64,000 bases of DNA from an uncultured Chloroflexia bacterium (GCA_963803165.1 CAWDLK010000003.1:42513-106512); one strand, 5' to 3'. Counted from the stretch's first letter, positions 10,096 through 25,874 are shown. Notes: generated by a model from the letters alone, not told the origin. Program-made: numbers and translations.

Positions 10096-10127
10096 CAGTC
10101 TATCCCCCGGCCCTATACTGCGGACGG

Positions 10128-10694
10128 ATGTTCGCCAGGTGGGCCTCCGGCTCCAGCTACCGCCGCAGCCAGCAGGCCACCGGCGTGCCGGTCCGCCCCA
10201 GCGCGATCGCCCGGGGCCTGACCCTCCGAGTCCTCGACGTCGGCGAGGAGGCCTCCGAGAGGGAGCGCATCGCCCAGCACCTGGTCGACGAGCTGAGCCG
10301 GGCGGCGGGGCTCCCGCCCTGCCAGGTCGTGGTCCCCGACCGTCCCCAGGTGCACCGCCATGACGGCCGCCGGCTGCAGTCCAAGACGTACGGCTACTAC
10401 AGCTACCGGCTCGATGCCCAGGGTGGGGTGGCCTGGGCGCGGATCCGCATCTACCACCGCACCGCGGTGCAGCAGCGGGTCATCTCCTCCAAGGTCTTCC
10501 TCAACACGCTGCTCCACGAGTGGGTCCACCACTACGACTTCCACGGCCTCCGGCTGCCCCGCTCGTACCACACGAGCGGCTTCTTCGCGCGGCTGCGAGC
10601 GCTGGCCGACGCGCTGGAGGTGGGATTCGTCCTGCCCCCGGAGCCCGACGCCACGCCGGCACCCGGCGAGCCCGGCCCGGCCGCCGCGGGCTAG
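10128..10694 (+). CDS. hypothetical protein with HExxH zinc-metallopeptidase-like motif
   Basis: LLHEWVHHYDFHG (HEWVH = HExxH); the annotated ATG at 10092 overlaps tRNA-Leu, so start moved to the Met at 10128 (MFARW). Confidence 0.5.
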   Translation: MFARWASGSSYRRSQQATGVPVRPSAIARGLTLRVLDVGEEASERERIAQHLVDELSRAAGLPPCQVVVPDRPQVHRHDGRRLQSKTYGYYSYRLDAQGGVAWARIRIYHRTAVQQRVISSKVFLNTLLHEWVHHYDFHGLRLPRSYHTSGFFARLRALADALEVGFVLPPEPDATPAPGEPGPAAAG

Positions 10695-10746
10695 TGGCCG
10701 CGGCTCCGACGCGCACCGAGGGGGGGCTTGGCTAGAGTTCACAGCG

Positions 10747-10784
10747 CGGCGACGTAGCCAAGTGGTAAGGCACGGGTCTGCAAA
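10747..10784 (+). repeat. 38-nt direct repeat = 5' half of tRNA-Cys(GCA) (positions -1 to 37); putative left att site of integrated island
   Basis: cggcgacgtagccaagtggtaaggcacgggtctgcaaa is identical to 24751..24788 (5' half of the intact tRNA-Cys); identity stops inside the anticodon loop. Confidence 0.8.
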
Positions 10785-11035
10785 TCGCCGCGATCGGTGT
10801 CCTTGGGCGTCCAGCGCCGTCCTAATCGCAGCCGCCCGAATTCGGGAAACGGCCTCGGTAGTGCGTTTCGAACGACGTCGGACGCCCAGAGGCGTGCGAA
10901 AACTCGTCTCGGGCGGACGAGAAGGTGTCAAGAAAGGTGTCAGCCCCTGGGCTTCGCAGACCCGCCGGACGTGACCGCCGCGACCAACCAGCACCCCTCT
11001 GACGCGCCTCCGTTACAGACGGTGCCGCTCCTGGA

Positions 11036-11428
11036 TCAGGCGATCGGCACCACCCAGAAATGAAGCTCGGGTAGCGGTTCGTAGTCGAGTGTCGCTTCGA
11101 TGACACCTTCACCCGGCCCGTAAGTGGGAAAGCGTAGCTCAGACACAACGTTCAGGTAGGCCCGCCCCGCTGGGTCCGTGCCGGCCGCCCTCAGCGGCAG
11201 CTCGGACCAGGGCAGCACCTCCAAACCGCCGTGAGAGATGCGCAGGCGTAGCCAGTGAACGGGCCGGATCTCCCACTGCTCGAGTTGTATGCGCGTGAGC
11301 AAGCGGATCTGGTTGGTCGCGGGGAACGATCTCACGTTGAGCTGGTCGACGCCGGCCGACCGGATGTCAATGAGGCCTTCTCGGTTGATCCTAGCCTCGT
11401 TGGCGAGTAATTGAGCGAGAACCTTCAC
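11036..11428 (-). CDS. hypothetical protein, translationally coupled to hicA-like gene (GTGA overlap)
   Basis: Track ORF 11036..11473 overlaps hicA by 49 nt from its ATG; an in-frame GTG at 11428 gives a 4-nt overlap with the hicA stop; no recognisable domain. Confidence 0.35.
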   Translation of the reverse strand: MKVLAQLLANEARINREGLIDIRSAGVDQLNVRSFPATNQIRLLTRIQLEQWEIRPVHWLRLRISHGGLEVLPWSELPLRAAGTDPAGRAYLNVVSELRFPTYGPGEGVIEATLDYEPLPELHFWVVPIA

Positions 11429-11634
11429 CGCAGCCTTTCGGCCTCCTCCTTGGTGATGCCCGCCTGCCGCCATATGGAGCTGAGCACCCCCCGCGTCACC
11501 TCCTTCTTGTTGCGCGGGACGGTTACGGTCCGAGGATGTCCGTCCTTCACGTATTGGTCCTCGCCGGTGCGGCGATCCCGGGTGAAGCCAAGCTTCTGGA
11601 GCACCCTACCCACATCCTGGCTTGACCAGGTCAC
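11425..11634 (-). CDS. hicA: HicA family toxin-like protein (YcfA/HicA fold, type II TA)
   Basis: 69 aa; VGRVLQKLGF...GHPRTVTVPRNKKEVTRGVLSSIWRQAGIT matches the HicA pattern (..G..V..GSH..F....G..TVPHP.KDL..GTL.SILKQAGL). Confidence 0.65.
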   Translation of the reverse strand: MTWSSQDVGRVLQKLGFTRDRRTGEDQYVKDGHPRTVTVPRNKKEVTRGVLSSIWRQAGITKEEAERLR

Positions 11635-11666
11635 CCGGGTGGGCCGCGTCTGTCAAGGTGGTGTAA

Positions 11667-12979
11667 GAGAGACCGACGCCATCCGCGCGTCGATCGACTC
11701 GTTCACGCTGCTGCGGTGATCGCGGGCAAGCCCTCCGTGTCGATGGTGGAGTAGGTCTTGGTGAGCGACTCGGCGCTCATGTAGCGGCGGCCCACGGCCC
11801 ACTCGTCGTTCTGCTCGGCGAGCACGGCCCCGACCAGGCGGATGACCGCGTCGCGGTTGGGGAAGATGCCGACCACGTCGGTGCGTCGACGGAGCTCCTT
11901 GTTGAGCCGCTCCTGGGGGTTGTTGGACCAGATCTGGCGCCAGTGCTCCTTGGCGAAGGCGGTGAAGGCCAGCAGGTCGGGGGTCGCCTCCTCGAGCAGA
12001 TCGGCCGCCCGCGGGAAGCGCTCGCGGAGCTGCTCCACGATCCGGCCGTGCTGGGCCCAGGTCGAGGTGGCGTCGGGCTGGGCAAAGGTGGAGCGCACCA
12101 GGGTGGCCACCGCGGCCTGGGCGGATCGGGGCACCCGGCTCAGCAGGTTGCGCATGAAGTGGGTCCGGCACCGCTGCCAGCTGGCGCCGTCGAGGATGGC
12201 GGCGATGGCGTTCTTGAGCCCTTCGTGGGCGTCGGAGATCACCAGCCGGACCCCACGCAGTCCTCGGGCCACCAGGCCCCGCAGGAAGGCCGTCCAGGCG
12301 GCTCCATCCTCGGCGCTGACCACGTCGACGCCCAGGATCTCCCGCTTGCCCTCAGCGGTCACCCCGGTGGCAACGACGGCACAGACGTTGACGATCCGGC
12401 CGTCTTCGCGGACCCGCTGGGTCAGGGCGTCGACCCAGACGTAGGGGTAGCCGGCGGGGTCCAGCGGCCGGTTGCGGAAGCTCGCCACCATCGGGTCCAG
12501 CTCCTGGGCCATGGCGCTCACCTGGGACTTGCTCAGCCGCTCGATGCCGAGCGTCCGGACCAGACCCTCGACCCGGCGGGTGGAGACGCCGCGGACATAG
12601 CACTCGGCCACCACCGCCACCAGGGCCCGCTCCGATCGCCGGCGCTGCTCCAAGAGCCAGTCCGGGAAGTAGCTGCCCGAGCGCAGCTTGGGGATGGCCA
12701 GGTCGATCGTACCCGTTCGGGTGTCCCAGGTCCGCTCCCGGTACCCGTTGCGGGAGTTCACCCGCTCCGGGGTCCGCTCGCCATAGCCGGCCCCGCAGAG
12801 GCTGTCGACCTCCGCGTTCATCAGGGCGCCGGCGAAGGTCGTGATCATCTCCCGCAACAGGTCGGCGTCAGCCGCCTCCACCTGCTTGCGGAACCAGGTC
12901 AGGGCATCCATGCTGGGTGTGGCCACCGTCATCTCCTCGAGGTTGGTGATGCTTCCTCAAAGGATGGCGGTGGTCTCTC
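11667..12979. mobile_element. IS256-family insertion sequence (~1.3 kb) with ~18-bp imperfect terminal inverted repeats
   Basis: IRs GAGAGACCGACGCCATCC (11667..11684) and GAGAGACCACCGCCATCC (reverse complement of 12962..12979), 16/18 match; encloses the Mutator/IS256 transposase. Confidence 0.75.
11703..12932 (-). CDS. IS256 family (Mutator-type) transposase
   Basis: 409 aa; typical IS256 transposase sequence (…DGRIVNVCAVVATGVTAEGKREILG…ISDAHEGLKNAI…WQRCRTHFMRN…), DDE residues spaced as in the family. Confidence 0.9.
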   Translation of the reverse strand: MTVATPSMDALTWFRKQVEAADADLLREMITTFAGALMNAEVDSLCGAGYGERTPERVNSRNGYRERTWDTRTGTIDLAIPKLRSGSYFPDWLLEQRRRSERALVAVVAECYVRGVSTRRVEGLVRTLGIERLSKSQVSAMAQELDPMVASFRNRPLDPAGYPYVWVDALTQRVREDGRIVNVCAVVATGVTAEGKREILGVDVVSAEDGAAWTAFLRGLVARGLRGVRLVISDAHEGLKNAIAAILDGASWQRCRTHFMRNLLSRVPRSAQAAVATLVRSTFAQPDATSTWAQHGRIVEQLRERFPRAADLLEEATPDLLAFTAFAKEHWRQIWSNNPQERLNKELRRRTDVVGIFPNRDAVIRLVGAVLAEQNDEWAVGRRYMSAESLTKTYSTIDTEGLPAITAAA

Positions 12980-13043
12980 CCTTTGTGGAGACCCTCAGGC
13001 TCCTCGTACACCACGTCCCTGGACGCTAACCCCGGCTTCCCCG

Positions 13044-13397
13044 TCAGGCGGGAAAGTGCAAGATCACTGGCACTCCCTGGCCAGGGTCGTGGCTGAGGAG
13101 AAACTCAGCGTGGGCCTCCTTCGGCACCGGGAACCCGGGGCTGATCCCCCGCTCCGCGGCCAGGGCCTGAGCATCATGCACCGCTTGCTGGAGGGCGCTC
13201 AAGGCTGCCTCAGCGCTCTCAGCTTGCGTCGCGATGTCGAGCTCTAGGCAGAGCGCGGCCCACTGACCGCCGCCCTGGTACGCCGCTACCCCCGTGAGGG
13301 TCGCCACTGGCGCAGCCGGCAACCCACCGGGCAGGCGTTGCTCATCCGTCGCGGTGGCGACGGACTCCACGCGGAAGTCACAGAGAGCGATCGTCAT
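13044..13397 (-). CDS. hypothetical protein; weak resemblance to HicB/UPF0150 antitoxin N-terminal domain
   Basis: 117 aa; segment GGQWAALCLELDIATQAESAEAALSALQQAVHD resembles the HicB-like core (W.A...DLPG....G.T.EEAL.N..EAI); on the same strand as and upstream of hicA, separated from it by the IS256. Confidence 0.3.
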   Translation of the reverse strand: MTIALCDFRVESVATATDEQRLPGGLPAAPVATLTGVAAYQGGGQWAALCLELDIATQAESAEAALSALQQAVHDAQALAAERGISPGFPVPKEAHAEFLLSHDPGQGVPVILHFPA

Positions 13398-13565
13398 CGC
13401 CGATAATCATGCTCCCGGCGACCGCGGTGCCGGGAGCCGAAGCTCGATTGTGTCAATCGCGGCCCGCCTCGGCACCGGTCGCCGCAAGGTTGCCGCGGTC
13501 GTCCTCGACGTCCCGCCGGGACCGCCGGGGATCTCGATTCGCCACGCCAGAGCCCCTCGCCGCCC

Positions 13566-15089
13566 TCAACCGAAGGGGGTCTGGGTCCACTGGAGCCCGC
13601 CGTCCTGGGTGGTCCAGATGCTGTGTGGGTCGCCGATCCACCACCCGACCTGCGCACTCTCGAAGCCCAGCCATGCCGGACTGCCCGCCTGGGTCAGCTG
13701 CTGAGTATCGGTCGCGGTGGCGGTCCAGTGGTCTCCTGCGTCCGTCGAGACGAGCACTTCGGCGGTGAAGGATCCATTGCCACCGATGGGGCCGGTGGAG
13801 ACGGCAAGGACATTCGGGCTGGCAGCCGCCAGCAGGGCAAGAACCTGCACGTCGGGCAGGCTGCCTGTCGATGTCCAGACCCCGCCGCTGTCGGTGGAGG
13901 TGACGACGAAGGTGCCGCTCCCCGTATGCGGGCTGCACAGCCCGGCGTAGAAGCCGCCCGGGGCTGAGGTCAGATCGATGAGGTCCTCCTCCGTGCTCGT
14001 GCCGGTGGCTCCCTGGCCGGAGCACGGGTCGCTCGTCGTCTGCCAGGTGGACCCTCCGTCGGTCGACCGATAGACAGTCGCCTGCGCCGACGTCGGGCCG
14101 GCCTGGCTCCCGTACAGGGCGACCAGCAGCGCGGAGCCTGAGGCGGCGATCTGCGCGGAGTCACTGCGATCCGGGTACGCCAACTGGGCGATCAGCGTGT
14201 GCCACACGCTGGATCCGATCGCCGCATCCTGCAGGGTGGGATTGCACGGTCCGGGGCAACCGCCGCTGTCATAGGCGACGCGATAGGCATAGCCATCGGC
14301 GACGGTGAGCGTCTCCACCTGCAGCCCCAACTGCGGCTGCCAGTTGAGGCCTCCATCGGTGGTCATGAGCAGCCTTGGCCCGTACAGGTAGCCGACCGTC
14401 GGGCTGGCGAAGGCCAGCTCGCTGACGCAGGCAATGCTGGAGCAGTCGGCGGACCCGGTCTGGACCTGCGCCGGCGGGTCGGGCAGCGCCTGCCACTGCG
14501 CTCCGCCATCGGTGGTGTGTGCCAGGACGGCACAGCTTCCCGTGGCGCATGGCTGCACCGCGAGCGCCCATCCCTCGGTGGTGCTGATCCAGCTGAGATC
14601 CAGGAGGGAGGCATCCGCCAGGCTCGGCGCCGCGGTCGTCGAGAAGGACAACGGCGCGCTGGCCATGGGCGGCGGGCTCGGTGGCCCCTTGGGGCCGAGC
14701 TTGATCACCACCGCAACCAGGAGGCACTGGTCCTGACATGCGGTCGTCGTCTGGTTCGACCCGCTGAAGGCAGACGCCTGCGCGGTGAAAGCTCCCGAGG
14801 CGGTGCCGGTGGTCCCCGTGTACAGGGTGATGCCCGAGTCTTCACCGCAACTGCTCGCGCCACCAGCGGAGGGCGATCCGGCGCACTCGTAGACCGACAC
14901 CGTGGCGTCCAGGGGGAACTCACTCAGGCGCACCTGCAGCTGCTGACCGCCGACCAGCCCCGCGCTCGGCGAGACGCTCAGGGCGGGCGAAGCAGTCGCT
15001 GACGGGCTGGTCGACGCCGTTGGCCCCCGCGACGGGCCGGCCACGCTCGGCCCGCACCCGAGGGCGAACAGCGCAAGACCGGTGGCCAT
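13566..15089 (-). CDS. BNR/Asp-box repeat lipoprotein (Ycf48/sialidase-like beta-propeller)
   Basis: Lipobox LALFALGC; repeated SxDGGxxW motifs (TTDGGAQW, TTDGGLNW, STDGGSTW, TQDGGLQW); start moved to the Met at 15089 preceding the signal peptide. Confidence 0.7.
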   Translation of the reverse strand: MATGLALFALGCGPSVAGPSRGPTASTSPSATASPALSVSPSAGLVGGQQLQVRLSEFPLDATVSVYECAGSPSAGGASSCGEDSGITLYTGTTGTASGAFTAQASAFSGSNQTTTACQDQCLLVAVVIKLGPKGPPSPPPMASAPLSFSTTAAPSLADASLLDLSWISTTEGWALAVQPCATGSCAVLAHTTDGGAQWQALPDPPAQVQTGSADCSSIACVSELAFASPTVGYLYGPRLLMTTDGGLNWQPQLGLQVETLTVADGYAYRVAYDSGGCPGPCNPTLQDAAIGSSVWHTLIAQLAYPDRSDSAQIAASGSALLVALYGSQAGPTSAQATVYRSTDGGSTWQTTSDPCSGQGATGTSTEEDLIDLTSAPGGFYAGLCSPHTGSGTFVVTSTDSGGVWTSTGSLPDVQVLALLAAASPNVLAVSTGPIGGNGSFTAEVLVSTDAGDHWTATATDTQQLTQAGSPAWLGFESAQVGWWIGDPHSIWTTQDGGLQWTQTPFG

Positions 15090-15845
15090 GATGCATGGCA
15101 GACGGGCATGGGAGCGCCCGTGTTCCCGGGAAGGCGCACACCCTTCCACGAACGCCATCACCGAGACGGCAAGCACGCCCACAGGTCTCACCGGCGGCTC
15201 CTCGAACCTGGTCAAGCATATGACGCCGCGAGGGCCCTATCTGTTACGCGGACCGGTGCGGCTGGGCAAACCGCCAGCCGTCGCACGCACCTCCGACGCG
15301 GCCGACCAACACCGGCTGTGACAGCGGCGGCGCCTCCTGCCGCCGTGCCGCCGCCGCGGATTCTGCTCAGTCGACCTACACCCAGCCAACCGATCGGCCC
15401 AAGCGCGTCACCTCTGGGGCGGTTGTTAGCCAGATCAGAGCCGCCGACCGAGGGGATTCGAGAAATCGTTGCTAAATCGCCTCGGGGAGCGCGGACTCGA
15501 ACCGCGGACCCCTGGTCCCCCAGACGCACCAGGCACATCGTTGACGGCGTAGGCGTCACGCATCTGAATACACGGAGCCGCGCCAAACCGCACCCAGCCG
15601 CACCGCTGTGAAGGGCAGTTGGCATCGAGTCTGGCATCGCCCGTAGGGCCACCGACCCTGGTATGGCGTCGCCACGGGAAGTATGGCGACCGCACAACAT
15701 CCATTGCGCTCGCATAGGTTTCGACCCCTGGTCCGCCTCGAACTCCGGACCCCTCGTCCCGTACAAGGTGCCTCCCGCCGCCTCGAGGGCGTCGGAAGGG
15801 GCTAGCTGCCGGAGACCACGAGGCAGTCGCAGCGGCGGCAATATC

Positions 15846-15875
15846 GGCCACGGCCACGGCCACGGCCACGGCCAG
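15846..15875. repeat. hexanucleotide microsatellite (GGCCAC)x5
   Basis: ggccacggccacggccacggccacggccag read directly; lies in non-coding island DNA. Confidence 0.85.
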
Positions 15876-16092
15876 CCAAGATGCGCTACTAACGAGGGCA
15901 GATGATCGCCAGTAAGTCAGTGCTCTCGTCGCCGGGGGACTTCATCCATGACTCACAAGACTCGGGGCGATCCCCGCGCCGGACTAAACCCGCCTACCTA
16001 CGTTCCGCGTCTGCTACGCTCAATTCCGCCTTCGGGCACCGCCCCTCGGGGCCAGCTACCTACGGGTCCACACCTCCAAGGAGGTCACGCCG

Positions 16093-16986
16093 ATGCTCAC
16101 CCTTACCCCCTTCGAGCGAAGCCTGCGCGCCCTGCTGGTCGAACACCTCCGCGACGCGGGCGGCGATCAGGACAAGGCCCTCATCACCGAGGAGGACCTC
16201 GACGCACGCATCGCTTCCCGCCCGCGGCACGGCAGCGACGCCCTCCGACCGCCCCACGACCGCTTCTTCCAAGCGTTGAGCCACATCTGCATCTACGAGG
16301 ACGAGCACGGACGGCCGCTTCTCGGCGCCATCGTGGTCGTCGAGAGCACGCGCCGCCCCGGCGATTGGTTTCAGCGCCTCACCGGCCACCTTGGGTTCGA
16401 GACCACCGGCACACGCCTCTGGTCGGACGAGCTGGACGCGCTCATCGATCTCTGGTCGTGGCAGCTCGCCCCGGACACCCTCGTCATCGCCGACATCATC
16501 GACCGTGGCGTCGAGACGCTAGACGCTCATGTCCGCGCTCTTGAGCGTTCCGTGCGCCGGGGCAGCCGTCTCCCCTACCTCAGCCGATCCGCTTCCTGGC
16601 CGTGCCAGCGCAACCACGACTTCATCCCGATGCTCCGGGCCAAGAACGTCGGCGACGCTCCGGCCGTCGATGCCCTCTACTGGGGCATGTCGAACTTCGC
16701 GCCCGCGCACCGCTCGGACCCCTTCAGCCTCGCCGCTGGCGAGGGGCCCGTCGACATCCCGCTGCGTCACTCCCCCACGACGCTCATGCGCGAGGTGATG
16801 GGCGATATGGTCGACGACGTCGCCGAGGTCCTCGTGTACGGCGACGGCGCCGGGCGCTGGCTGCGCCAGCGCCCCCACCTGGCCCAGCGCGCCGACGTCT
16901 GGGTCGACGACGGCCGCGCCGATCCGCCCGCCTGGCTCGCCTGGTACCGCACCATGCTCCGCGAGATTGGCTTGCGCCGTTCCTGA
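16093..16986 (+). CDS. hypothetical protein (297 aa), no recognisable domain
   Basis: Strong RBS AAGGAGG 8 nt upstream of ATG (16073..16080); coherent non-repetitive protein composition; inside island. Confidence 0.6.
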   Translation: MLTLTPFERSLRALLVEHLRDAGGDQDKALITEEDLDARIASRPRHGSDALRPPHDRFFQALSHICIYEDEHGRPLLGAIVVVESTRRPGDWFQRLTGHLGFETTGTRLWSDELDALIDLWSWQLAPDTLVIADIIDRGVETLDAHVRALERSVRRGSRLPYLSRSASWPCQRNHDFIPMLRAKNVGDAPAVDALYWGMSNFAPAHRSDPFSLAAGEGPVDIPLRHSPTTLMREVMGDMVDDVAEVLVYGDGAGRWLRQRPHLAQRADVWVDDGRADPPAWLAWYRTMLREIGLRRS

Positions 16987-17093
16987 ACCCACGCGCCAAC
17001 TCCCTGCAGCGCGATCGCCAGGGCTAGACGTTGCCGTGATTGCTGCCACGCATCACATGCACGAGTAGATGCGACACGCCGCGCAACCTCGAT

Positions 17094-18266
17094 CTACGGT
17101 GGGGCTTGCACATCGCTCCCCGGTAAGGCCTCCATAGGTCCAAGGTGGTAGCCAAGCGACCAAAGTCCGTATGCCACCTCGCGGAAGCAGTCGTAGCTGG
17201 CAAGCCACGCTCGAGCGTTACGGCACTCTGCATCCCGTGGCTCCCACCGGAACCCGTGTTGTGCCATGAAGGAGAGGACTTCGCTTGTCTCGGCGCGTGG
17301 CTGATCGACGGCTAAGTGCCTGGCCACGAGTGCCACGGGGCTGCGGTCAGACGCGTCGAGAGGTGAGCCGAGCGCAAATTCAGACACCCGCTCACCAGCG
17401 GCCATCATCCTCTCCAGTTCTGCCATCAAAGGGGGCCCGACCTCTTTTGCTATTGTGGCGACGCGCTCTCGTATCGACCGTCCGCGCTCGCTTCTCAAGT
17501 AAGCCACCAGAAGCCCAACCGCCACGAGGCCTAACGCCAGCGCTGCCTCCCGTCCGATTGTGCTGGCTAGCTTCTTCGCCCCGCTTACCCCGGCGTACCC
17601 GACGGCGCGCGCCGCGAGCTCGACGCCGTTGACACTGATGCCCATCTCCCCGAGCGTGTAGACATCCACGGCCACGGCGTCTGTCTTGGTATCCGGCAGG
17701 CCCAGCGGACGGAAATCACGACGGTTGTCCGTGACGAGGACGCTAGGTGCGAGGAGTAGAGCCAGCGCTGCTGTCGGGGCATCTGCGGCGTGGAGCGTAG
17801 CCACAGCCGCCACGCGCTGGTCCATCATCGCCTCTGGCGGAACCGGAACCACTCGGACGTTGGGAACGATTACATCGTTCCACACCAGGCGCACGCCTTC
17901 CACGTCTCCCCGGCGATCTGCTATATCCCGCAAGTGGCGGATCGCCTCCTCCATGACACATGGCGTGGCGAACAGGGCGATCCCGGTCCAAATGCTGTAC
18001 CCGGGACTCGCGCGACCGAGCAGTGCCGGCTTGTAGCCCTTGCGAACCGCGTAGTCCACATTGCGGATCAAGACGTCAGCGTCCACAACCACTGGGGTCG
18101 GAAAGAGAAGTGCCCCGCGGCCGGCGGCCCCACTCCTGGGCCCGCTCAACGGTCCTTCCAAACTATTAGCCCTCTGCACTCGGATGCCCGCCAAGGCCCT
18201 GAGCGCGATCCGGTTCTGCCACCGTAGCCCGGGTATCCCCCGGAATCGACGCCGACGCGGCCGCAA
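17094..18266 (-). CDS. PIN-domain protein fused to a C-terminal region with a transmembrane helix; start uncertain (N-terminal ~50 codons overlap upstream gene)
   Basis: PIN acidic residues in order: VVVDADVLI ... CVMEEAIRHL ... LHAADAPTAALALLL ... VLVTDNRRDF; predicted TM ALALGLVAVGLLVAYL; ~150 aa C-terminal domain of unknown function. Confidence 0.55.
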   Translation of the reverse strand: MRPRRRRFRGIPGLRWQNRIALRALAGIRVQRANSLEGPLSGPRSGAAGRGALLFPTPVVVDADVLIRNVDYAVRKGYKPALLGRASPGYSIWTGIALFATPCVMEEAIRHLRDIADRRGDVEGVRLVWNDVIVPNVRVVPVPPEAMMDQRVAAVATLHAADAPTAALALLLAPSVLVTDNRRDFRPLGLPDTKTDAVAVDVYTLGEMGISVNGVELAARAVGYAGVSGAKKLASTIGREAALALGLVAVGLLVAYLRSERGRSIRERVATIAKEVGPPLMAELERMMAAGERVSEFALGSPLDASDRSPVALVARHLAVDQPRAETSEVLSFMAQHGFRWEPRDAECRNARAWLASYDCFREVAYGLWSLGYHLGPMEALPGSDVQAPP

Positions 18267-18858
18267 CTGGCAGGTCCGCCGCCTCCTGCTCCATCGCGTC
18301 GATGACGAAGTCGATCTCGCGACGGGAAACGCTCACGAAGTGGAACCGGGTGACCCATGACCCGTCCCCTGAGGTAAGCGTCTGAGCCAAGTCCTGGTAC
18401 TGCACGAAGCCGTTGGCACCGGCCAAGTAGTCGGCAGGCAGGGGCCCACCCCCTAAAGCCGGCAGCTGGAGAGGAGGGTCTAACCGAGCATCCAGGCACT
18501 CACCGGCGGCGATGATTCCCGCGAGGATTCGGCGCTCCACTGGCGGACCATCCCCATTCCTCGTCGTGAGCACGCCGCGGACGTTGAACGCCGGCCCGCG
18601 CCCGCCGTTCTTCAAGGGCAGCAGGAGATCGCCGCTCTCATAACGCGTGTCGGCCCTTCCAGAGATGTAGTCCGCCGGCAGGTGGGGACAAACCACGGCG
18701 TGCTGCGCCCCCCATTCCCGAGCCCAGGCGTCGCTCAGCGCCTCCTTGCGATCGCGCTGCTCCCTCCGGATCGCGCGAGCATTCCAGACAAACCCACCCG
18801 TGCCGAGCACCACGGAAACGAGCAGGGATGACAGGGCGATCCAGAACGATCCGTCCAT
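18166..18858 (-). CDS. hypothetical membrane-anchored protein (N-terminal TM helix)
   Basis: 230 aa; N-terminal WIALSSLLVSVVLGTGGFVW hydrophobic helix then soluble domain; sits between the 500-aa gene and the PIN gene on the same strand. Confidence 0.45.
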   Translation of the reverse strand: MDGSFWIALSSLLVSVVLGTGGFVWNARAIRREQRDRKEALSDAWAREWGAQHAVVCPHLPADYISGRADTRYESGDLLLPLKNGGRGPAFNVRGVLTTRNGDGPPVERRILAGIIAAGECLDARLDPPLQLPALGGGPLPADYLAGANGFVQYQDLAQTLTSGDGSWVTRFHFVSVSRREIDFVIDAMEQEAADLPVAAASASIPGDTRATVAEPDRAQGLGGHPSAEG

Positions 18859-18924
18859 GCGGTCCAGAATGCTACCCGGCGCGTGCGCAACTCATTGGCG
18901 CCATCCAAACCCTGGGAGCAGCCA

Positions 18925-20427
18925 CTACAGCCCCAGCTGCCAGCGAATGCTTTGGCGCATCCAAGTTTCGAAGGGGTTGCCCGGTACCCCGTGTGGTGGG
19001 GCGCAGTGCTCTGGCAGCAGGGTCACGTGAGCCAGCCGCTCGACCGGCGTTAGCTCCATCAACCGGTCAAGCAACGGCGTCACGGTTTGGAAAAGTCGTT
19101 CCACGAGCCTTCCTGGATCAACGTGGGTGCGGCCCAACACCACTGCCCGGGCGCCCCATAAACTGCGACCGCCCTCGGCGTCCATGGCGGCCAACAGCTC
19201 CGCCTCTTCGCCAGCCGGCAGGCCCACCAGGGTCTCCTGCGGGCCGTGGTCTTGCGTGTAGGCGATGCCCTGCAACGCCGTACCGTGGACCGAGTTCCGA
19301 AGCAGGCGGACGATCGTCAGGACGTGGTTACCCGCGGTTCCATCGGCGACTACGTCAGCGAGGGTCGGCTCCGCCGCATGGCATTTCTGCCACCAGCTGT
19401 TCCGCTGCCAACCGACCAGGTGCTCGTCGTGCTGGATCCCGAGAACGCGGTGGGCAACTCGCGCGGCGATGTCGACGGCAGACATGAAGGAGACGAGGAC
19501 CACGTCCAGCGTGGACAGGGCGTCGTCGCGGAGGTCGTTGTTCTGCTTCTGGTTCAGAGCAAGATGGATGGCGTCGCGTAGCTCGAGAGCTCGGTCCACC
19601 CGTTGCAGAAGGCTACCGGCTAGCAGCAGGAGGGAGTCGTCGCCTGCGCCGGAGGCGTACTGGCCGCAGGCGTTGAACCACCGCCATGCCGCCGGCAGGA
19701 TGTCTCGGGTGCCGACCCAGAAGTAGAGGCCGCGATTGAAGCTGACGTGGTTGAGGATGTGGAACTCGCCCTGAGCCCGAAGGTACAACCCAACGAGCGT
19801 CAAGGCCTCTGCCGGGGTGCACACGGTGGTGCCGCGGTTGGCATACCCGCGGTACTTGTGGAGGAAGGATCGCTCGGTGACATAGAGATCAGCCTCGACC
19901 GCCTGGCTGGCCACCTGGGCCGCAATGGCGTCCTCCCGCCGATGGTTCCGGGCCTCCTCAGGAGCGAGGTGATCATAGGCATCGGTAGAGGTGTCGTTCT
20001 CGGCGACATCGACCGCGTTGCCACGGAGTCCAGCGGTCATGTACCCGTTGGCGTGCTCGGCCACTGTGACACCTCGGTATCCCGGCGGCGCCTCAGGGTT
20101 GACAATAGCCCAGCCGGGGTAGGCCTCGACCCCGGTTCGGTGGAGGACGGGCTGAACGCCGGGAGGAGGTCCGGTTGGAGAATATCGGAAGCAGCGGATG
20201 AGCTCGTTGTCCAAGAGGTCGGAGAGCAGGCTCGTCTGATCCAGGTGCTGAGTGGGGTCCAAGCGCGTCGTGTCTGTCTTCAGGTCAGCATCGATGGCCA
20301 CGACCATCTTGCGCAGCGGTCTTCGGTGAAAGAACACCGGGACCGCTTGACTGGGGTCGGTCGGCCAGACCGGGGCCCTAACGGTCTGCCGCGAGACGTC
20401 GAGCTGCTTCATCGACGCCCACCACAA
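18925..20427 (-). CDS. hypothetical protein (500 aa), no recognisable domain; possible Rx3H HEPN-like segment
   Basis: Long coherent ORF in lower-GC island DNA; segment RLLRNSVHGTALQ read directly; no assignable motif. Confidence 0.5.
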   Translation of the reverse strand: MWWASMKQLDVSRQTVRAPVWPTDPSQAVPVFFHRRPLRKMVVAIDADLKTDTTRLDPTQHLDQTSLLSDLLDNELIRCFRYSPTGPPPGVQPVLHRTGVEAYPGWAIVNPEAPPGYRGVTVAEHANGYMTAGLRGNAVDVAENDTSTDAYDHLAPEEARNHRREDAIAAQVASQAVEADLYVTERSFLHKYRGYANRGTTVCTPAEALTLVGLYLRAQGEFHILNHVSFNRGLYFWVGTRDILPAAWRWFNACGQYASGAGDDSLLLLAGSLLQRVDRALELRDAIHLALNQKQNNDLRDDALSTLDVVLVSFMSAVDIAARVAHRVLGIQHDEHLVGWQRNSWWQKCHAAEPTLADVVADGTAGNHVLTIVRLLRNSVHGTALQGIAYTQDHGPQETLVGLPAGEEAELLAAMDAEGGRSLWGARAVVLGRTHVDPGRLVERLFQTVTPLLDRLMELTPVERLAHVTLLPEHCAPPHGVPGNPFETWMRQSIRWQLGL

Positions 20428-20602
20428 CTCCGTCGTACGCCGGGGCGCGTTCCGGGTGCCTGCAAGCGACTAAGCCAGATGGAGGCCCGGTGCGTGGGGG
20501 TGCCGCGAGTCCCGACCAAGCTGGCGGCCCAGGCGGTAGCCGGGGTGACGGCGAGAGCGAAGAGAAGGGCAACGAGGGGAACGAAGCGACGGGCAGCGGT
20601 GC

Positions 20603-21103
20603 TCACGGCTCGGTGTCCGGAGGCGGGGGCAGGATCGAGACCAACTCGCCGGTGATCTGCACCCCATGGTGGTCGATGAGCTCCTGGAGGTACAGGCCGA
20701 GCTGTCCGCGGAGCTTCCCGAGTGCCTCATGGAGCGCCCCGGACTCGGGGCCCCAGCCGACGGGTCCACCCCACCGGCGACTACGCAGACCCCGCTGCAC
20801 TTCATCGAGGAATGCCCGGCACGCGGCTGCCATCCTCCGCAGGGTCACAGCGAGGTCAACGTCGCGGGGAAGGCGTCCGATCTCGTCAACGAGGTGACGC
20901 CGGATTTCGATGACCGAGACCACGCAGTGGTCGAGGATCTCGATGTCCAGCGGGTTGTATAGGACCCGGCGATCCTCCAGGAACGCGACCAGTCTTGCGA
21001 GCACCTCCTTCTCGACATCCGGTAGGTTCTCCCAGCCAACGCCACCGCCGACGACGGGAAGGCTCACGCTGGTGAGCCGCTTGCGGATACGAGGCCGCGG
21101 CAT
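20603..21103 (-). CDS. hypothetical protein (166 aa)
   Basis: Coherent composition, same strand and upstream of 500-aa gene; no motif recognised. Confidence 0.4.
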   Translation of the reverse strand: MPRPRIRKRLTSVSLPVVGGGVGWENLPDVEKEVLARLVAFLEDRRVLYNPLDIEILDHCVVSVIEIRRHLVDEIGRLPRDVDLAVTLRRMAAACRAFLDEVQRGLRSRRWGGPVGWGPESGALHEALGKLRGQLGLYLQELIDHHGVQITGELVSILPPPPDTEP

Positions 21104-22582
21104 CCGGGCAACGATACCTCGCGAGCCGGGGAAGATCTGGCCCCCCGGCCAGCGGAGCCAGCATGGCCGGCAGCAGCAGCGCCTGCGCTCGGAGGCTCAC
21201 CGCCCCCTTCTCGGGCGTCTCTGGATTCCAAGACCCGAGGTGTCAGGGGTCAACGCATCGCCATCGCGGGGCTTCTGGGCCTTCCCGCGGTGGCCCCGAT
21301 GGGTAAAGGTTTGAGGACCTTCAGGGGCCAGCGCAGCCGGCGGACGGCGTCACGGGCCCGGCGCTGCTCGGCCTGGGCTCGCCGGCTAAGCAGGCGGTAG
21401 CTGCCGTCGCGGAGAGCGGCGATGGCAGGGAGTGCCAGCTCCATGGTGGCCATCGCTTGGGCGGCGAGGACGTCGAGCTTCTGGAGCACCGCCCGGGCGT
21501 CGCGGAGCAGTGTCTCGGTCCGTTTGACCTCCCGGGCGAGGTTGAGCGGATCCCGCGTGGTCGTCGCATCGCCTCCCGTCGCATCATCCCCGGACGCTCC
21601 ATCCGCTGCGTTCGCGATGCAGCCTTCCGATCGCTGCGCTCCTCCCCATCGCCCAGCACGCCGCGTACGTCTGCATTCCCCTCGCCCCACGCCTGCTGGC
21701 GCGTTCGCGCTGTTCTCGGATACCGTACCCTATGCACCCTCCGGTCATCTGTTCGATCCACCCTCCCTGGCGCCACCCTCGACGCCCTCCTGGCACTCGT
21801 CCCGGCGCAGCCCGGGGCGCGGTGGACGGGGCAGCGAAAGGAGGGTTTCGGGGCTCGGCAGCTGCACGCGATGCGCAGGTGTCAGCGGTCGAGGGCAACC
21901 GGCACCGGGCCTCCTGGAGCTCCTTTGAGCACGCGTCCGTGTGCTCAAAGGAAGAGGGGATCTGGTTCGGGATAGGGTGGCGGTGGCCACTCAGCGTCGC
22001 GCCGGGCTGGGTCGTGGCGTGCACTGCCTCGCCCTGCCCGACGACCACAGCCAGTACGAGCTCGGTGAGCGCGAGACCCGGGACCACCCTTCTCCTCACC
22101 GCGAGGGCGAAGGGTGAGACAGCAGCGCATGCGGTTGGCGCGAGCGGCCGACGACAGGCCGGTACGGGTCGTTTGCTGCGTACTGCGCGATCGGTCACGC
22201 CCTCCTCGAGAAGCGCTGGGCTGTAACAAGTCCGTGACGGCGCAGGATCACTCAGCCGCTCCTGTACCCGCAAACGCACCGTCATGAACGCGTCTGTACC
22301 CCCATACGGAGCTAAGGATCGCGTCTGTACTCGCAGTCCCTTCGAACGATGTGGCACCCGTACGCAGGGCTCGGTGCGTACTGTGCGATCGGGTCGGCTT
22401 CGCGCTGAGAGTCGGCGGGACTGCGTACGGGGTTCGTACGCCCCATCTGCTCGCATGGGCCCGTGGAGCGACGAGCCTGGTCACTGTCGGACGGCACGGA
22501 GATGCCCGGGGCGGCACCCCTCCGCACAGACCGCGACGTGACAGCCAACGCCGATGACGTCGGGCCTTCGGGCCCGAACAAC

Positions 22583-22780
22583 ATGGCTTCGGTCGCCTCT
22601 CCGCAGCTCCTGCTATCGGTACCCGAGGCGGCTCGGGCGCTCGGGATCGCCCGCAGCTCGCTCTACGTCCTGATGGACCGTCATGAGCTCACCAGCGTCT
22701 CCATCGGGCGCCGACGGCTGCTCCCTGCGCGCGCCCTCGAGGAGTACGTCGACCGTCTCATCGAACGTTCCCGCTGCTGA
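22583..22780 (+). CDS. xis: excisionase / AlpA-MerR-like HTH DNA-binding protein
   Basis: LLSVPEAARALGIARSSLYVLMDRHELTSVSIGRRRLLPARALEEYVDRL, typical excisionase-family HTH; start placed at the internal Met (MASVASPQ) because the upstream part of the track ORF is non-protein-like; adjacent to int. Confidence 0.65.
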   Translation: MASVASPQLLLSVPEAARALGIARSSLYVLMDRHELTSVSIGRRRLLPARALEEYVDRLIERSRC

Positions 22781-22825
22781 CCCCGGGGGTCCAGGAACGG
22801 GGCGGTCCCCTCCACGCTCCTCTGG

Positions 22826-23077
22826 TCAGGCTGCCGGCTGGACCGGGCGCACCGCCTCGCGAAGCCCCTCCGGATCGAGGTCGGCCCCGTTCGGCCACAC
22901 CACCGTGCCGAGCTCCGGATCGACCTGCACACGGCGGAAGATCGCCAGGTCGCGCAGCGGCTCGAACACCTCACCCCAAAGCTGCTCGGTGAGGTCGATG
23001 TCGCCGACGCTGCCATCGCTGAAGGTGAGCCGCAGCTCGTACCCCTCGCGCGGCTCGACGCTGATCACCTTGACCAC
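22826..23077 (-). CDS. DUF2442 domain protein
   Basis: 83 aa; MVKVISVEPREGYELRLTFSDGSVGDIDL...EPLRDLAIFRRVQVDPELGTVVWPNGADLDPE matches the DUF2442 consensus. Confidence 0.75.
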   Translation of the reverse strand: MVKVISVEPREGYELRLTFSDGSVGDIDLTEQLWGEVFEPLRDLAIFRRVQVDPELGTVVWPNGADLDPEGLREAVRPVQPAA

Positions 23078-23086
23078 GACCCCATC

Positions 23087-23356
23087 CTAAGCCAGCGGCT
23101 CGATGGTGACCAGCGGGCGCTGTTCGAGCACCCGCTGCCAGTTGTCGCGTAGCTCGTCGAGATGGAGGGACGCCCACTCCATCACGTGCCCGAGCGCCCG
23201 GGGAGGGAGCCAGCCGTCGAGGACCGCGAGCGGCTCGATGCCGATCGAGGCCTCGTGCTCGCCGTAGAGGGCGTGGAAGTGAGCGGCGTGATGCCGGCCC
23301 GCCGCCTCCCAGTACATGGCGATGACGATGCCGTAGAAGGCGCTGATCCGGGGCAT
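23087..23356 (-). CDS. DUF4160 domain protein (partner of DUF2442)
   Basis: 89 aa; MPRISAFYGIVIAMYWEAAGRHHAAHFHALYGEHEA, conserved DUF4160 N-terminus; abuts the integrase stop. Confidence 0.75.
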   Translation of the reverse strand: MPRISAFYGIVIAMYWEAAGRHHAAHFHALYGEHEASIGIEPLAVLDGWLPPRALGHVMEWASLHLDELRDNWQRVLEQRPLVTIEPLA

Positions 23357-24648
23357 CAGGCTTCGGGCCGACGACCCATGCGCCGGCGGGCTATCTCTTC
23401 GACAGCCTCACGCTGCATGGTCGGGGTCACGTGCGAGTACAAGTCGAGGGTGATGCCCACCGAGGCGTGGCCGAGCCGCTCCGAGGCCACCTTCGGGTGC
23501 ATCCCGTTCTTGAGCCAGTCCGTCGCCGCTGAGTGGCGCAGGTCGTGGAAGCGGACGTCGGGGAGGGCGGCGCGCCGGAGGAGACCATCGAGGGCGCGAG
23601 TGAGGGTGGTAGTGCTCAGGTAGCGGCCGAACTCGTTGGGGAAGACCAGGTCCTGCTCCACCCACATGGACCCAGCCCGGAGCCGGTCCTGCACCTGGCG
23701 CGCCCGATGTGCACGGAGGGCCTCGACTGTCTCGGGGAAGAGCACCAGGTTGCGCCGCGACCGGCGTGATTTCGGCGCGCCGATGGTGAGCTTCGACCGC
23801 AGTGCCCCTTGCAGCGACCCGGTGACCGACAGCATCCCCCGCTCCAGGTCGACGTCGCGCCAGCGAAGCCCGAGGATCTCGCCCTGGCGCAGCCCCTCCC
23901 GAATGGCCAGGACGAGGAGCGCCTCCAGCCGGTCGCCACGGACCGCCTCCACGAAGCGGTCGTAGTCGGCGTCGGCGAGGACGCGCATCTCGGTGCGGGC
24001 CATCGCCGGACGGGCGTCCTCGTCGACCAGGTCCGCCACGTTGCGGGCGACCTTGCCCTGGCGCACCGCCTTGGCCAGGGCGCGATGGATGACGGCGTGA
24101 ACGTGGTGGGCGGAGGTGGAGCTCAGCCCCATGCCGCCCTCGGCCGGGCTAGCGGTCATCCGCCGGTAGAGACGCTCCAGATCGCCCGGCTCCAGCTTCA
24201 CCAGAGGCTTGGTGGCGAACTCTGAGCGGAGGAGGTGGGCCCTCACGTAGCGGGAGTAGAAGTCGATCGTCGCGGGCTTCAGCTTCGCGGGGAGGCTGGC
24301 GACCCACTCCTGGAGCCAGGCCCCGACGGTGACCCGGGCGTCGGGCAGCGGGAGGCCCTCACGCTGCGTCTGGAGGGCCTCGGCGAGGGCCGCCTCGGCC
24401 TCGTCCTGGCTGTGCCGGTAGAACAGGCGGTAGGTCCCGTCCTCGAGCCTCAGGCGGCCGACCCAGCGGCCATCCTTCCGCTGGATGACGCCCCCCGTGC
24501 CCTTCTTCCGGCGGCCGCGGCGCGTCTCCTGGCGGGCGCCGCGCTCCGCTGACACCCCGTGTGACACCCTGCCGCGGCGACGGGGGCTCTCCGGCTCTTG
24601 ATTCCCGCTATCCTCGTTCACGTCGGCGCTCCTGGTGGAGCCGGCCAC
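23356..24648 (-). CDS. int: tyrosine-type site-specific integrase (phage integrase family)
   Basis: N-terminal SAM-like domain (GVIQRKDGRWVGRLRLEDGTYRLFY), catalytic HDLRHSAAT...LGHASVGITLDLYSHV (R..HxxR..Y); GTG start; an alternative GTG at 24621 has an AGGAG RBS. Confidence 0.9.
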   Translation of the reverse strand: MAGSTRSADVNEDSGNQEPESPRRRGRVSHGVSAERGARQETRRGRRKKGTGGVIQRKDGRWVGRLRLEDGTYRLFYRHSQDEAEAALAEALQTQREGLPLPDARVTVGAWLQEWVASLPAKLKPATIDFYSRYVRAHLLRSEFATKPLVKLEPGDLERLYRRMTASPAEGGMGLSSTSAHHVHAVIHRALAKAVRQGKVARNVADLVDEDARPAMARTEMRVLADADYDRFVEAVRGDRLEALLVLAIREGLRQGEILGLRWRDVDLERGMLSVTGSLQGALRSKLTIGAPKSRRSRRNLVLFPETVEALRAHRARQVQDRLRAGSMWVEQDLVFPNEFGRYLSTTTLTRALDGLLRRAALPDVRFHDLRHSAATDWLKNGMHPKVASERLGHASVGITLDLYSHVTPTMQREAVEEIARRRMGRRPEA

Positions 24649-24751
24649 GTCCCCGGCCGTTGCAGCAGCGCGGGGACTTCACACCTCTAGATGCTATAAG
24701 GTGTCAGATAGGGTGTCAACCTGATACCTTATGAGCGAAATTCCCTGACAC

Positions 24752-24825
24752 GGCGACGTAGCCAAGTGGTAAGGCACGGGTCTGCAAAACCCTGATCGTG
24801 GGTTCGATTCCCACCGTCGCCTCCA
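24752..24825 (+). tRNA. tRNA-Cys (anticodon GCA), CCA encoded
   Basis: Manual fold: acceptor GGCGACG/CGTCGCC, D-arm GCC-AAGTGGTAA-GGC, anticodon loop CTGCAAA (GCA), T-arm GTGGG-TTCGATT-CCCAC, discriminator T, CCA; C27-U43 mismatch in anticodon stem. Confidence 0.88.
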
Positions 24826-24899
24826 ATTCGATGTCACCCGCGCGGGGCGTCACCCGGGCGGAGGGCGCTCCCACTCCGCCGATGGCAGGCGCCCCTCGG

Positions 24900-25874
24900 T
24901 CAGGAGGAGCCGACCGCGGTCTGGGAGTCGAGGGCGGTCTCGATGCCCTGGATGGTCGCCGACGTGCACACCGACGACGGCTGGTTGCCGTCGGCGAGAC
25001 AGACCGCCGCGGTGATCCAGTTGGCGTTGCCGACGATCGCCCGGGTCACCGAGCTGCTCGGCTTGCCGAGGTCGGAGGCGATCTGGGTCCAGGTGAGTCC
25101 CTGGAGCAGCCCGGGATCGTAGCTGGGCGCGTAGAGGACGAACCGACCGGCGATGTCGAGGAAGGGAACGCCGGTGGCCTGCACGGTGTAGGGGGGCTGG
25201 TCGTAGGTCGTGTACACGCTCTCGACCTGCGCGCTCGGAGTCTGGAGCGGATTGTCGTTGCGGTCCTCCAGCTCGGTCGCGCTGAAGTCCACGTACTGGC
25301 TCTGGTAGCTGCTGTCGACGAAGGTGAAGGTGCTGGTGTTGGGGTCGACGTCGGTGCTGTCCGACGACATCTCCTTGAGGTTGCTGAAGCTGCCCAGGCG
25401 GGAGAGGGCCATGATCAGGCTCCACCGCTCGGCGGCGCAGTAGGGGCAGTACTCGGCGCCGACGTAGACGACCTCGGGCAAGCCGTCGGAGCCCTGGATG
25501 GTCCCGCTCCCGCCCAGCCGGATGAGCTGCCCCGTCTGTCCTCCCTTGTCCACGGTGCTGAAGAGGCTCGCGCTGGGGTCGGTCACGGCGTTGAGCACCG
25601 ACGTGGGGACCGTCGTCGGGGTGGAGACCGCGTACGCGGCGCCGCCGGAGTTGAAGGTGATGATCGCGAAGACGGCGATCAGCGCCACCACCACCGCCGA
25701 TCCACCTCCGAGGGCAAGGGGGCTCTGCCACCAGGGCTGCCGCGTCGCGACCGACCCCGGGCGGGCCTGGCGGCGCCTCTGCTTCTTGGTGAGCGGGCGC
25801 TGGCCGGCGAGCGGCGACGACGACGATCCGCTGCGCGACCGGGGGGCGGGACGGGATGGCGGTCTTTGAGGCAT
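24900..25874 (-). CDS. DUF929 family membrane-anchored thioredoxin-like protein
   Basis: N-terminal TM ([15 protein letters not shown]), CxxC motif [13 protein letters not shown] characteristic of DUF929. Confidence 0.7.

Follow-up and report, generated by a model that had tools for sequence, protein, structure and literature searches.

Introduction

The usual attachment site for integration at a transfer RNA (tRNA) gene has a common core, 30-45 bp in length, in which the tRNA's 3' half is contained (Hatfull laboratory, PMC10865867). The opposite choice is on record too: of the 3,919 islands in the Islander database, 3,760 are marked by a 3' fragment of the tRNA gene (tDNA) and 159 by a 5' fragment (Hudson, Lau and Williams 2015, PMC4383910). 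This article concerns an island of the second sort. It occupies 14 kb at the tRNA-Cys(GCA) gene within a 64,000-nucleotide (nt) stretch of DNA deposited under an uncultured Chloroflexia bacterium (GCA_963803165.1 CAWDLK010000003.1:42513-106512), the whole of which is called the window below; close relatives of the flanking genes all come from metagenome-assembled genomes of Candidatus Dormibacterota. A first-pass annotation of the window called the polarity of the island atypical. Rare it is, but such polarity had already been documented, and the island is a well-resolved member of that rare class. What is new here is the host phylum, the demonstration of the polarity across an integrase clade, and the layout of attP, the attachment site carried by the element.

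The Islander islands with 5' fragments likewise lie between an intact tDNA and a co-oriented displaced end fragment, with the 5' fragment upstream and a tyrosine integrase gene in the island, and Islander islands also share an identity block centred on the anticodon region. They differ in coming from genomes of cultured organisms, with the 5' class given as a count only. Here the lineage is an uncultured one of Dormibacterota, and in place of a count the polarity is traced through a clade of integrases 53-100% identical that serves three tRNA identities.

In Klebsiella pneumoniae, integrases of clade I.d put their islands on the upstream side of the arg2 tDNA, a placement "in contrast to all other" islands at tDNAs, and the same preprint reports a novel preference for a D-loop sublocation among integrases outside group I.a (bioRxiv 10.1101/2020.11.02.365908). 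There, as here, the island lies upstream of its target tRNA gene and the behaviour follows the integrase clade. In the present case, by contrast, the identity block runs as far as the anticodon loop, to position 37 here and 40 in relatives; the phylum is unrelated, and so, presumably, is the integrase lineage.

The likeness to the classical integrators into the 3' half is close, but as in a mirror. Both have a tyrosine integrase, a core of about half a tRNA with one edge at the anticodon loop, pairs of arm sites, and a tRNA that is rebuilt upon integration. Here, however, it is the 5' half that the element brings, so that it must supply the upstream signals, while the displaced fragment keeps the host promoter. 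A protein-coding counterpart exists in the dusA islands, where the integrase targets the 5' end of the gene and the island brings a replacement 5' end along with putative -35 and -10 elements (Farrugia et al. 2015, PMC4482086). Protein-coding genes are also what two relatives of the present integrase (loci L182 and L183) face, again at the 5' end. The dusA islands differ in that their target is such a gene rather than a tRNA, and in using another integrase family, one of Proteobacteria.

The biology is thus the variant one would expect of a well-understood mechanism. Its interest lies in how cleanly this minority use of the tRNA integration site is documented, with both junctions, empty sites, two sister elements in complete form and an attP layout that is conserved, and in a polarity inherited within a clade that has switched among tRNA-Cys, tRNA-Tyr and tRNA-Phe, perhaps even to the 5' ends of protein-coding genes. 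Island finders that assume a 3' fragment would miss or misplace such elements. Dormibacterota are uncultured and their mobile elements almost undescribed; the integrase, together with attP and the tRNA-Cys attachment site of the chromosome (attB), might serve as a tool in a phylum for which genetics is lacking.

A tRNA-Cys gene and its displaced 5' half

ARAGORN finds three tRNA genes in the window, one of them tRNA-Cys(GCA) at 24752-24825 on the plus strand, which Rfam also finds (RF00005, 68.1 bits). A 38-mer, CGGCGACGTAGCCAAGTGGTAAGGCACGGGTCTGCAAA, occurs exactly twice in the window, both times on the plus strand, at 10747-10784 and 24751-24788. The count remains two when three mismatches are allowed, and none is expected from 100 shuffles. 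The copies are 14,004 nt apart (family D1 of a repeat-family scan). They correspond to tRNA-Cys positions -1 to +37, and their 3' edge coincides with the end of the anticodon loop, the 7-nt CTGCAAA. The repeat, its coordinates and its extent within the tRNA had all been given in the first-pass annotation, and they are correct as judged by ARAGORN, Rfam and the exact and 3-mismatch searches.

The left copy (10747..10784, plus strand) is the core of attL, the displaced 5' fragment of tRNA-Cys, an exact repeat whose position fits the alignments with empty sites described below. The right copy (24751..24788, plus strand), equally exact, is the core of attR and constitutes the island-derived 5' half of the functional gene. 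The intact tRNA-Cys(GCA) (24752..24825, plus strand) is therefore chimeric: island and host have positions 1-37 in common, and its 3' part comes from the host. Between the cores, positions 10785-24750 are element-specific. The Islander signature consists of 2-200 kb between tDNA copies, with a tyrosine integrase gene; here the interval is 14.0 kb and contains one, with the intact tRNA at one bound and the co-oriented 5' fragment (38/38 nt) upstream at the other. Composition, which the earlier annotation had proposed as a check, sets the island apart: its G+C content is 68.1% as against 75.2% in the left flank, and tetranucleotide correlation with the remaining window reaches its minimum within it.

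Then there are the chromosomes that lack the island. Relatives of the left flank were reached through homologues P0121 and P0127 of its ORF (open reading frame); an exact-protein look-up of that ORF gave no match, a different start codon in the gene calls being the probable cause. The locus is uninterrupted in L012, L013, L187 and L194-L201, the last being eight places in one species (P0127). The gene order at the empty locus is tRNA-Leu(TAA) and a hydrolase gene, the 200-aa left-flank gene, tRNA-Cys, DUF929, MgsA. Empty attB sites in related genomes, a check named in the first-pass annotation, have thus been found, and with them its claim of an insertion at tRNA-Cys is borne out.

The nearest empty site is L187, with about 86% DNA identity to the left flank over 10.5 kb and 84% to the right flank. 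L187 1-10557 aligns with window 128-10684 (86% identity), L187 11749-11826 with window 10707-10784 (94.9%), and L187 11789-18053 with window 24751-31004 (84%). One 38-nt segment, L187 11789-11826, therefore aligns to both junctions of the island, and so behaves as an attB site should.

Which half of the gene did the island bring? The native upstream sequence, GGCTTGGCTAGAGTTCAC(A/G)GCG, stands at the left junction, before the orphan fragment, while nothing in the empty sites corresponds to the 100 nt that precede the intact tRNA (alignment A1). With native DNA before the fragment and island DNA before the intact tRNA, the 5' half must have come with the island, and the working gene is a chimera. 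The duplicated segment is thus the 5' half, just as the earlier annotation had it. The native upstream region of tRNA-Cys, now before the orphan fragment (10707..10746, plus strand), is 94.9% identical to L187 and is conserved in L012. It contains a -10-like TAGAGT (10733-10738, plus strand), a putative promoter element 9 nt before tRNA position +1.

Reversal of the integration would yield a predicted attP junction, made of 24700-24788 joined to 10785-10850, that reads ...GAAATTCCCTGACACGGCGACGTAGCCAAGTGGTAAGGCACGGGTCTGCAAATCGCCGCGATCGGTGTCC..., also written ...CCCTGACACGGCGACG...CTGCAAATCGCCGCGATCGG..., and a predicted restored attB, ...GGCTAGAGTTCACAGCGCGGCGACG...TCTGCAAAACCCTGATCGTGG....

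Two observations concern the neighbourhood of attB. Between the left-flank gene and tRNA-Cys, L187 has a 381-aa gene (10593-11738; G+C at third codon positions, GC3, 0.93; no Pfam domain) that is absent from the window, from L012 and from L194-L201, so the region upstream of attB is itself variable. The tRNA-Leu(TAA) gene of the window (9999-10085, minus strand; ARAGORN) is conserved in relatives and did not appear in the Rfam gathering-threshold search of 9500-35000.

The integrase and its companions

Inside the right end of the island are four genes, which encode a tyrosine integrase, a DUF4160 protein, a DUF2442 protein and an HTH_17 protein. The integrase gene (23356..24621, minus strand; PF00589, E-value 9e-23) encodes 421 aa from a GTG at 24621, within a longest ORF that reaches 24648, and its transcription points away from tRNA-Cys. 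The product is 100% identical to P0001, a protein present in four independent metagenome assemblies. Residues R245, K284, H359, R362, H385 and Y395 are invariant in 26 homologues (alignment A2). I take these, provisionally, to be the canonical active-site positions of tyrosine recombinases. Matches in the PDB are XerA, Int and XerD. About 55 residues before the SAM-like domain belong to no Pfam family, the sole match (PF14659, E-value 0.015) covering the core-binding region.

The DUF4160 gene (23087-23356, minus strand; PF13711, E-value 5e-18) and the DUF2442 gene (22826-23077, minus strand; PF10387, E-value 1e-15) are present as the first-pass annotation had listed them, as is the integrase. 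Its "excisionase" is another matter. The HTH_17 protein (22463..22780, plus strand; PF12728, E-value 8e-10) is a candidate excisionase or regulator, with a match to PHROG 66, "excisionase and transcriptional regulator" (E-value 7.6e-5), and the name goes no further than its domain. A gene of the same kind is found in related elements.

Putative arm sites and promoters

There are 12 copies of RGGTGTCA in the window, where 3.3 would be expected, and seven of them are clustered at the island ends. The motif forms tandem pairs with a spacing of exactly 12 nt at 24699/24711 (plus strand), 24550/24562 (minus strand) and 10923/10935 (plus strand). The first of these lies 35-50 nt before the core and the last about 140 nt past the core on the other side, so repeated putative arm-type sites flank the attP core on both sides, a feature of lambda-type systems.

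The candidate proximal P arm (24699..24730, plus strand) consists of tandem AGGTGTCA and GGGTGTCA (24699-24718) followed by an inverted, imperfect CTGATACCTT (24721-24730). The candidate distal P arm (24550..24569, minus strand) is a tandem of GGGTGTCA motifs 12 nt apart inside the integrase ORF's 5' end; L008, L005 and L091 have a TGACACC motif at the corresponding position. The candidate P' arm (10923..10942, plus strand) is a tandem of AGGTGTCA motifs, again 12 nt apart, with a further, inverted copy of RGGTGTCA at 11101-11108. From their placement, conservation and co-variation, the motifs are probably arm-type integrase sites.

The same short region has to serve the integrase gene. In what would be its leader there is a G+C-rich inverted repeat (CCCCGGCCG...CGCGGGG, 24650..24676), whose arms are kept in seven family members, invariant in six of them and without the first C of the left arm in L179 (alignment A3). 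A candidate integrase promoter, TTGACA-17 nt-TAGCAT (24691..24719, minus strand), matches the consensus at 10 of 12 positions, with none expected in shuffles, and its -35 hexamer overlaps an arm-type motif. Facing the tRNA is a weak -10-like hexamer, GAAATT (24737..24742, plus strand), picked out by eye; it failed a consensus promoter scan. It stands 9 nt before tRNA +1, the same spacing as that of the native TAGAGT and of TATCCT in L013, and might, speculatively, be an island-borne promoter element for the tRNA.

The polarity runs in the integrase clade

The arrangement in the window recurs elsewhere. An integrase gene lies just upstream of a gene for tRNA-Cys, tRNA-Tyr or tRNA-Phe, and divergent from it, in nine distinct elements whose integrases are 53-100% identical. 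The window's own arrangement is repeated in L001 (tRNA-Cys). At tRNA-Cys there are also L008 (73-74% integrase identity), L091 and L092 (63% and 70%), L179 and L180/L181 (72%) and L184 (GCA_035552595.1; 53%). L005 and L090 (74%) are at tRNA-Tyr, and L178 (ENA ERZ25039538 contig_1430; 70%) is at tRNA-Phe. In L182 and L183 (60%) the integrase stands at the 5' end of a protein-coding gene, with the P-arm layout unchanged. A metagenome scan with the integrase found eight loci. A scan of viral contigs with the integrase alignment found distant relatives only (at most 44% identity), mostly without host flanks, and these give little information on polarity.

Two of the elements are complete, L179 (about 10.7 kb) and L180 (about 11.4 kb), and each is bounded by a 40-nt repeat of tRNA-Cys positions 1-40. 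The bounds are 9665-9738 and 20389-20428 in L179, and 2922-2995 and 14310-14349 in L180. The far flank of L180 is the upstream sequence of tRNA-Cys in the empty site L013, as judged against alignment A1. The tRNA-Cys of the window is identical over its 74 nt to those of L008 and L179.

Members of the family share a layout between integrase and tRNA: a G+C-rich inverted repeat, an integrase promoter region, two motifs in direct orientation and a third that is inverted (alignment A3). The far ends of L179 and L180 have the tandem pair of motifs too, about 95 nt in from the fragment. L178, the tRNA-Phe element, has TGGTCA in each of its three proximal motif copies, a joint change that fits protein-binding sites evolving together; no far repeat was detectable within 10 kb in that element. 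The target tRNAs for Cys, Tyr and Phe share the anticodon-arm sequence GGTCTGNAAAACC, which explains how targets could be switched within the clade. Even the ends of assemblies are informative. Short-read contigs break 29 nt into the core of the window's element and 28 nt into the tRNA 5' half of a tRNA-Tyr element, as expected if the repeat is at least 31 nt long. The 5' polarity is a heritable property of this integrase clade.

Several members present features of their own. In L179 (JGI 3300048780 Ga0495364_000026), the sequence upstream of the displaced tRNA-Cys 5' fragment (20429-20552), GAAGGTGTCAGGCCACACCTTCAGGGACGAGAATTCCTGGCAA, looks like the family's island-borne P arm (window 24709-24751), not like native upstream DNA. 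A previous member of the family may have shed its promoter-proximal end there, as a lasting replacement for the region upstream of the tRNA. The hairpin and arm motifs of L183 (8884-9056) and L182 (9779-10001) face gene starts, those of an Iso_dh family dehydrogenase and a glycosyltransferase, and protein-coding genes may, at their 5' ends, be a further target of the clade. The tRNA-Phe gene of L178 has a second mobile element on its 3' side (in 1-9730, with a TrwC relaxase, Fic, HTH_17 and an integrase fragment) and is thus flanked by elements of both polarities. In L184 (9028-11239), the strand of tRNA-Cys relative to the left-flank gene is the reverse of that in the window and at the empty sites; next comes the integrase, and 460 nt further on the contig stops. 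Either an inversion between att sites or a different native order could account for this arrangement.

In the far halves of L005, L008, L179 and L180, every gene inward from the far att site (HTH_17, AAA_25, terminase-like and others) points the same way as the native tRNA promoter that was displaced. The geometry would allow transcription from that promoter to run on into these sister elements. Scans for terminators downstream of the displaced fragments found none in the window or in L179 and one candidate in L180 (14087-14067).

A model for integration

I propose, with high confidence, that this is a 14,004-bp island integrated site-specifically at the tRNA-Cys(GCA) gene of a member of Candidatus Dormibacterota, by means of its own integrase and an attP that carries the 5' half of the tRNA. 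The tyrosine integrase, acting on arm and core sites, would pair attP with the tRNA-Cys gene. The attP core would be a copy of tRNA-Cys positions -1 to +37, and strand exchange would take place within tRNA positions 1-37. By analogy with known systems, the crossover most likely falls in the 7-bp anticodon loop CTGCAAA, which is favoured because the identity block ends there (at 37; at 40 in L179 and L180) and because the anticodon stem gives flanking symmetry. The anticodon-loop sublocation class, reportedly defined by Williams in 2002, is said to have the edge of its identity block at the anticodon loop, flanked by the symmetric anticodon stem. The edge is at the same place here, at position 37 in the window and 40 in the two complete relatives, but the block runs to the 5' end of the tRNA, so that it lacks the extension typical of the classical class and is its mirror arrangement.

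In this exchange the native promoter region and the original 5' half would be displaced 14 kb upstream to become the orphan fragment (attL), and the functional tRNA (attR) would take its 5' half from the island and its 3' half from the chromosome. With a chimeric tRNA preceded by island DNA, transcription must start in island DNA, presumably within the region of about 100 bp that the tRNA shares with the divergent integrase gene. The arm-type motifs would be bound by a lambda-like integrase that recognises both core and arm sites, and the motif over the candidate integrase promoter would permit autoregulation. The HTH_17 protein would be the likely directionality factor, presumably needed for excision.

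It is tempting to go further and to see in the reversed polarity an adaptive strategy of the whole Dormibacterota integrase clade, with the tRNA made dependent on element DNA and a host promoter captured. I consider this rather unlikely. Were it true, dependence of tRNA expression on element DNA would act as a ratchet for retention, and the relic in L179 that resembles a P arm would fit. The strong host tRNA promoter would point inward from the far end of the element, co-oriented with the long operon, HTH_17 first, in L005, L008, L179 and L180, and expression of the element would be switched on only upon integration.

Cargo

The remainder of the island, read from the left end, begins with an ORF of 145 aa resembling DUF6941 (11036..11473, minus strand; PF22091, E-value 1.4e-5, slightly under the curated cut-off) and a HicA toxin gene of 69 aa (11425..11634, minus strand; PF07927, E-value 3e-12). 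An insertion sequence (IS) of the IS256 family follows (11667..12979, minus strand), with its transposase at 11703-12932 (Transposase_mut, PF00872, E-value 4e-135) and terminal inverted repeats at 11667-11684 and 12962-12979. It splits hicA from an ORF of 117 aa (13044..13397, minus strand) that is possibly a HicB-like antitoxin partner, mainly from its position beside hicA; this ORF has a weak match to PHROG 12841 and none in Pfam. Then comes a protein of 549 aa with a BNR/Ycf48-like propeller and a neocarzinostatin-like domain (13566..15215, minus strand; PF14870, PF00960, PF02012; NCBIfam matches below cut-off), which is probably secreted.

The next 0.9 kb or so (15220-16090) has no frame-specific GC3 signal, no convincing ORF and no Rfam match, and may be decayed or regulatory DNA. 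Beyond it lies an ORF of 297 aa (16093..16986, plus strand) with a clear coding signal (GC3 0.89) and no match in any library. An ORF of up to 390 aa (17094..18266, minus strand), also without a library match, reads in translation like a PIN domain in its N-terminal part (VVDADVLI ... LVTDNRRDF), a tentative and weak resemblance. It is followed by an ORF of 230 aa with an N-terminal hydrophobic segment (18166..18858, minus strand; no library match).

More can be said of the conserved hypothetical protein of 500 aa (18925..20427, minus strand). It matches no Pfam domain, is represented by 242 homologues from Dormibacterota, Actinomycetota and other groups, and adjoins the gene for a DUF6650 protein of 166 aa (20603..21103, minus strand; PF20355, E-value 2.5e-14; PHROG 29952, E-value 6e-22). 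A confidently predicted fold gives it a HEPN-like helical domain with an invariant R377-N-x-x-H381-G, one residue shorter than the canonical Rx4-6H. As judged from this model, it could be an uncharacterised ribonuclease (RNase) or a protein like those of abortive infection. An ORF of 290 aa (21584..22456, minus strand), without a library match, is called as a gene in the identical metagenome copies L001 and L002. Overall the cargo, to which the DUF4160/DUF2442 pair also belongs, appears to comprise genes like those of toxin-antitoxin systems, abortive infection or RNases, along with the IS256-family element.

What kind of element, and in what state

No capsid, terminase, portal, relaxase, secretion or replication gene is found among the island ORFs in Pfam, PHROGs, NCBIfam and PADLOC, a negative that rests on the ORFs other than the five that carry no annotation. 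The earlier verdict of an island rather than a prophage or an integrative and conjugative element (ICE) agrees with this. A prophage is rejected on finding no capsid, portal, terminase or tail match in Pfam, PHROG or NCBIfam. An ICE, or its actinomycete form (AICE), is rejected on finding neither a relaxase with type IV secretion nor an FtsK-like transfer protein with a replication protein. The window's own copy is no phage satellite either, having no packaging gene and no primase/helicase module. The relatives L005, L008, L179 and L180, with genes for Terminase_7 or Terminase_6N-like proteins, HNH and AAA_25, do resemble phage satellites. When 14 window proteins, nine of them island-encoded, were compared with the relatives by tblastn, the integrase alone matched. 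The element is best described as a cargo island that uses the integration module of a family otherwise made up of what look like phage satellites of about 11 kb.

A number of points weigh against the model I have proposed. No empty site from the same species was found, the nearest (L187) having DNA about 86% identical. No Pfam arm-binding domain was found in the N-terminus of the integrase. The exact crossover point cannot be read from the sequence. The island's supply of a promoter to the functional tRNA, claimed in the first-pass annotation, holds by geometry, but no convincing promoter was identified there: upstream of the intact tRNA no plus-strand promoter of the sigma-70 consensus type was found, though the rules of this phylum may differ, and GAAATT is weak. 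The IS256-family insertion and the apparently non-coding 0.9 kb suggest some decay of the cargo. Finally, present-day mobility is unproven, no excised circle or attP junction having been observed.

These last points invite the view that the island entered tRNA-Cys with 5' polarity and is now an immobile fossil that has kept its integration module and lost excision or transfer. It has no replication, packaging or transfer genes, an IS separates hicA from its likely partner, 0.9 kb gives no coding signal, and relatives in the same integrase family have the terminase-like and AAA_25 genes that it lacks. I hold that view possible but unlikely. Against it, the att copies are identical at 38 of 38 nt, the integrase ORF is full length with its catalytic residues invariant, the candidate directionality factor is there, all three pairs of arm-type motifs are intact, and copies with identical protein sequences exist in four independent metagenome assemblies. 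The heterogeneous cargo and the gap at 15.2-16.1 kb, which divides two blocks of genes, might instead mark a composite of at least two elements that integrated successively at tRNA-Cys, the right part (from the integrase to about 16 kb) recent, the left part (BNR, IS256, HicA) an older remnant, and the att site between them lost. The P-arm-like sequence before the displaced fragment of L179 argues that repeated use of a site does leave relics. Yet no third or degenerate copy of the tRNA 5' half turned up inside the island, either in a 3-mismatch search or with blastn-short, the P' arm tandem motifs lie at the far left end (10923-10942) as a single element predicts, and G+C is uniformly low over all 14 kb. 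A composite is therefore very doubtful.

What of the left copy as nothing more than a relic, as the first-pass annotation allowed? It had entertained a decayed copy, and that does not survive: the copy is identical at 38 of 38 nt and lies exactly where comparison with the empty sites predicts. The same two facts rule out a fragment of a paralogous tRNA-Cys gene. The broader notion, of a duplicated or paralogous tRNA-Cys with ordinary variable chromosome between the copies, has nothing in its favour beyond the bare presence of a tRNA fragment, and its probability is close to nil. It is effectively refuted by relatives that have a single tRNA-Cys here with the flanks adjacent. Besides, both junctions align with 38 nt of L187, the fragment, 100% identical, stops exactly at the anticodon loop, an integrase and conserved arm-type sites adjoin the repeats, and two other elements (L179 and L180) are built alike. 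Site-specific integration of one island at tRNA-Cys, with 5' polarity, remains the reading I prefer.

Probable classical remnants nearby

A few kb to the right of the island, a tRNA-Gly(GCC) gene (30925-30999) has its 3' part repeated twice more behind it, in the same orientation, at 33495-33544 (50 nt, 96%) and 34346-34372 (28 nt). The genes of this region are an IS630-type DDE_3 transposase (31197-32327, minus strand), a MazE/PIN pair (32681-33330) and YoeB (33618-33887), with no integrase among them. The fragments look like integrase-less remnants of elements with the classical 3' polarity, a few kb from an island of 5' polarity. In L187 the YoeB segment and one tRNA-Gly fragment are present and 31004-33490 is absent.

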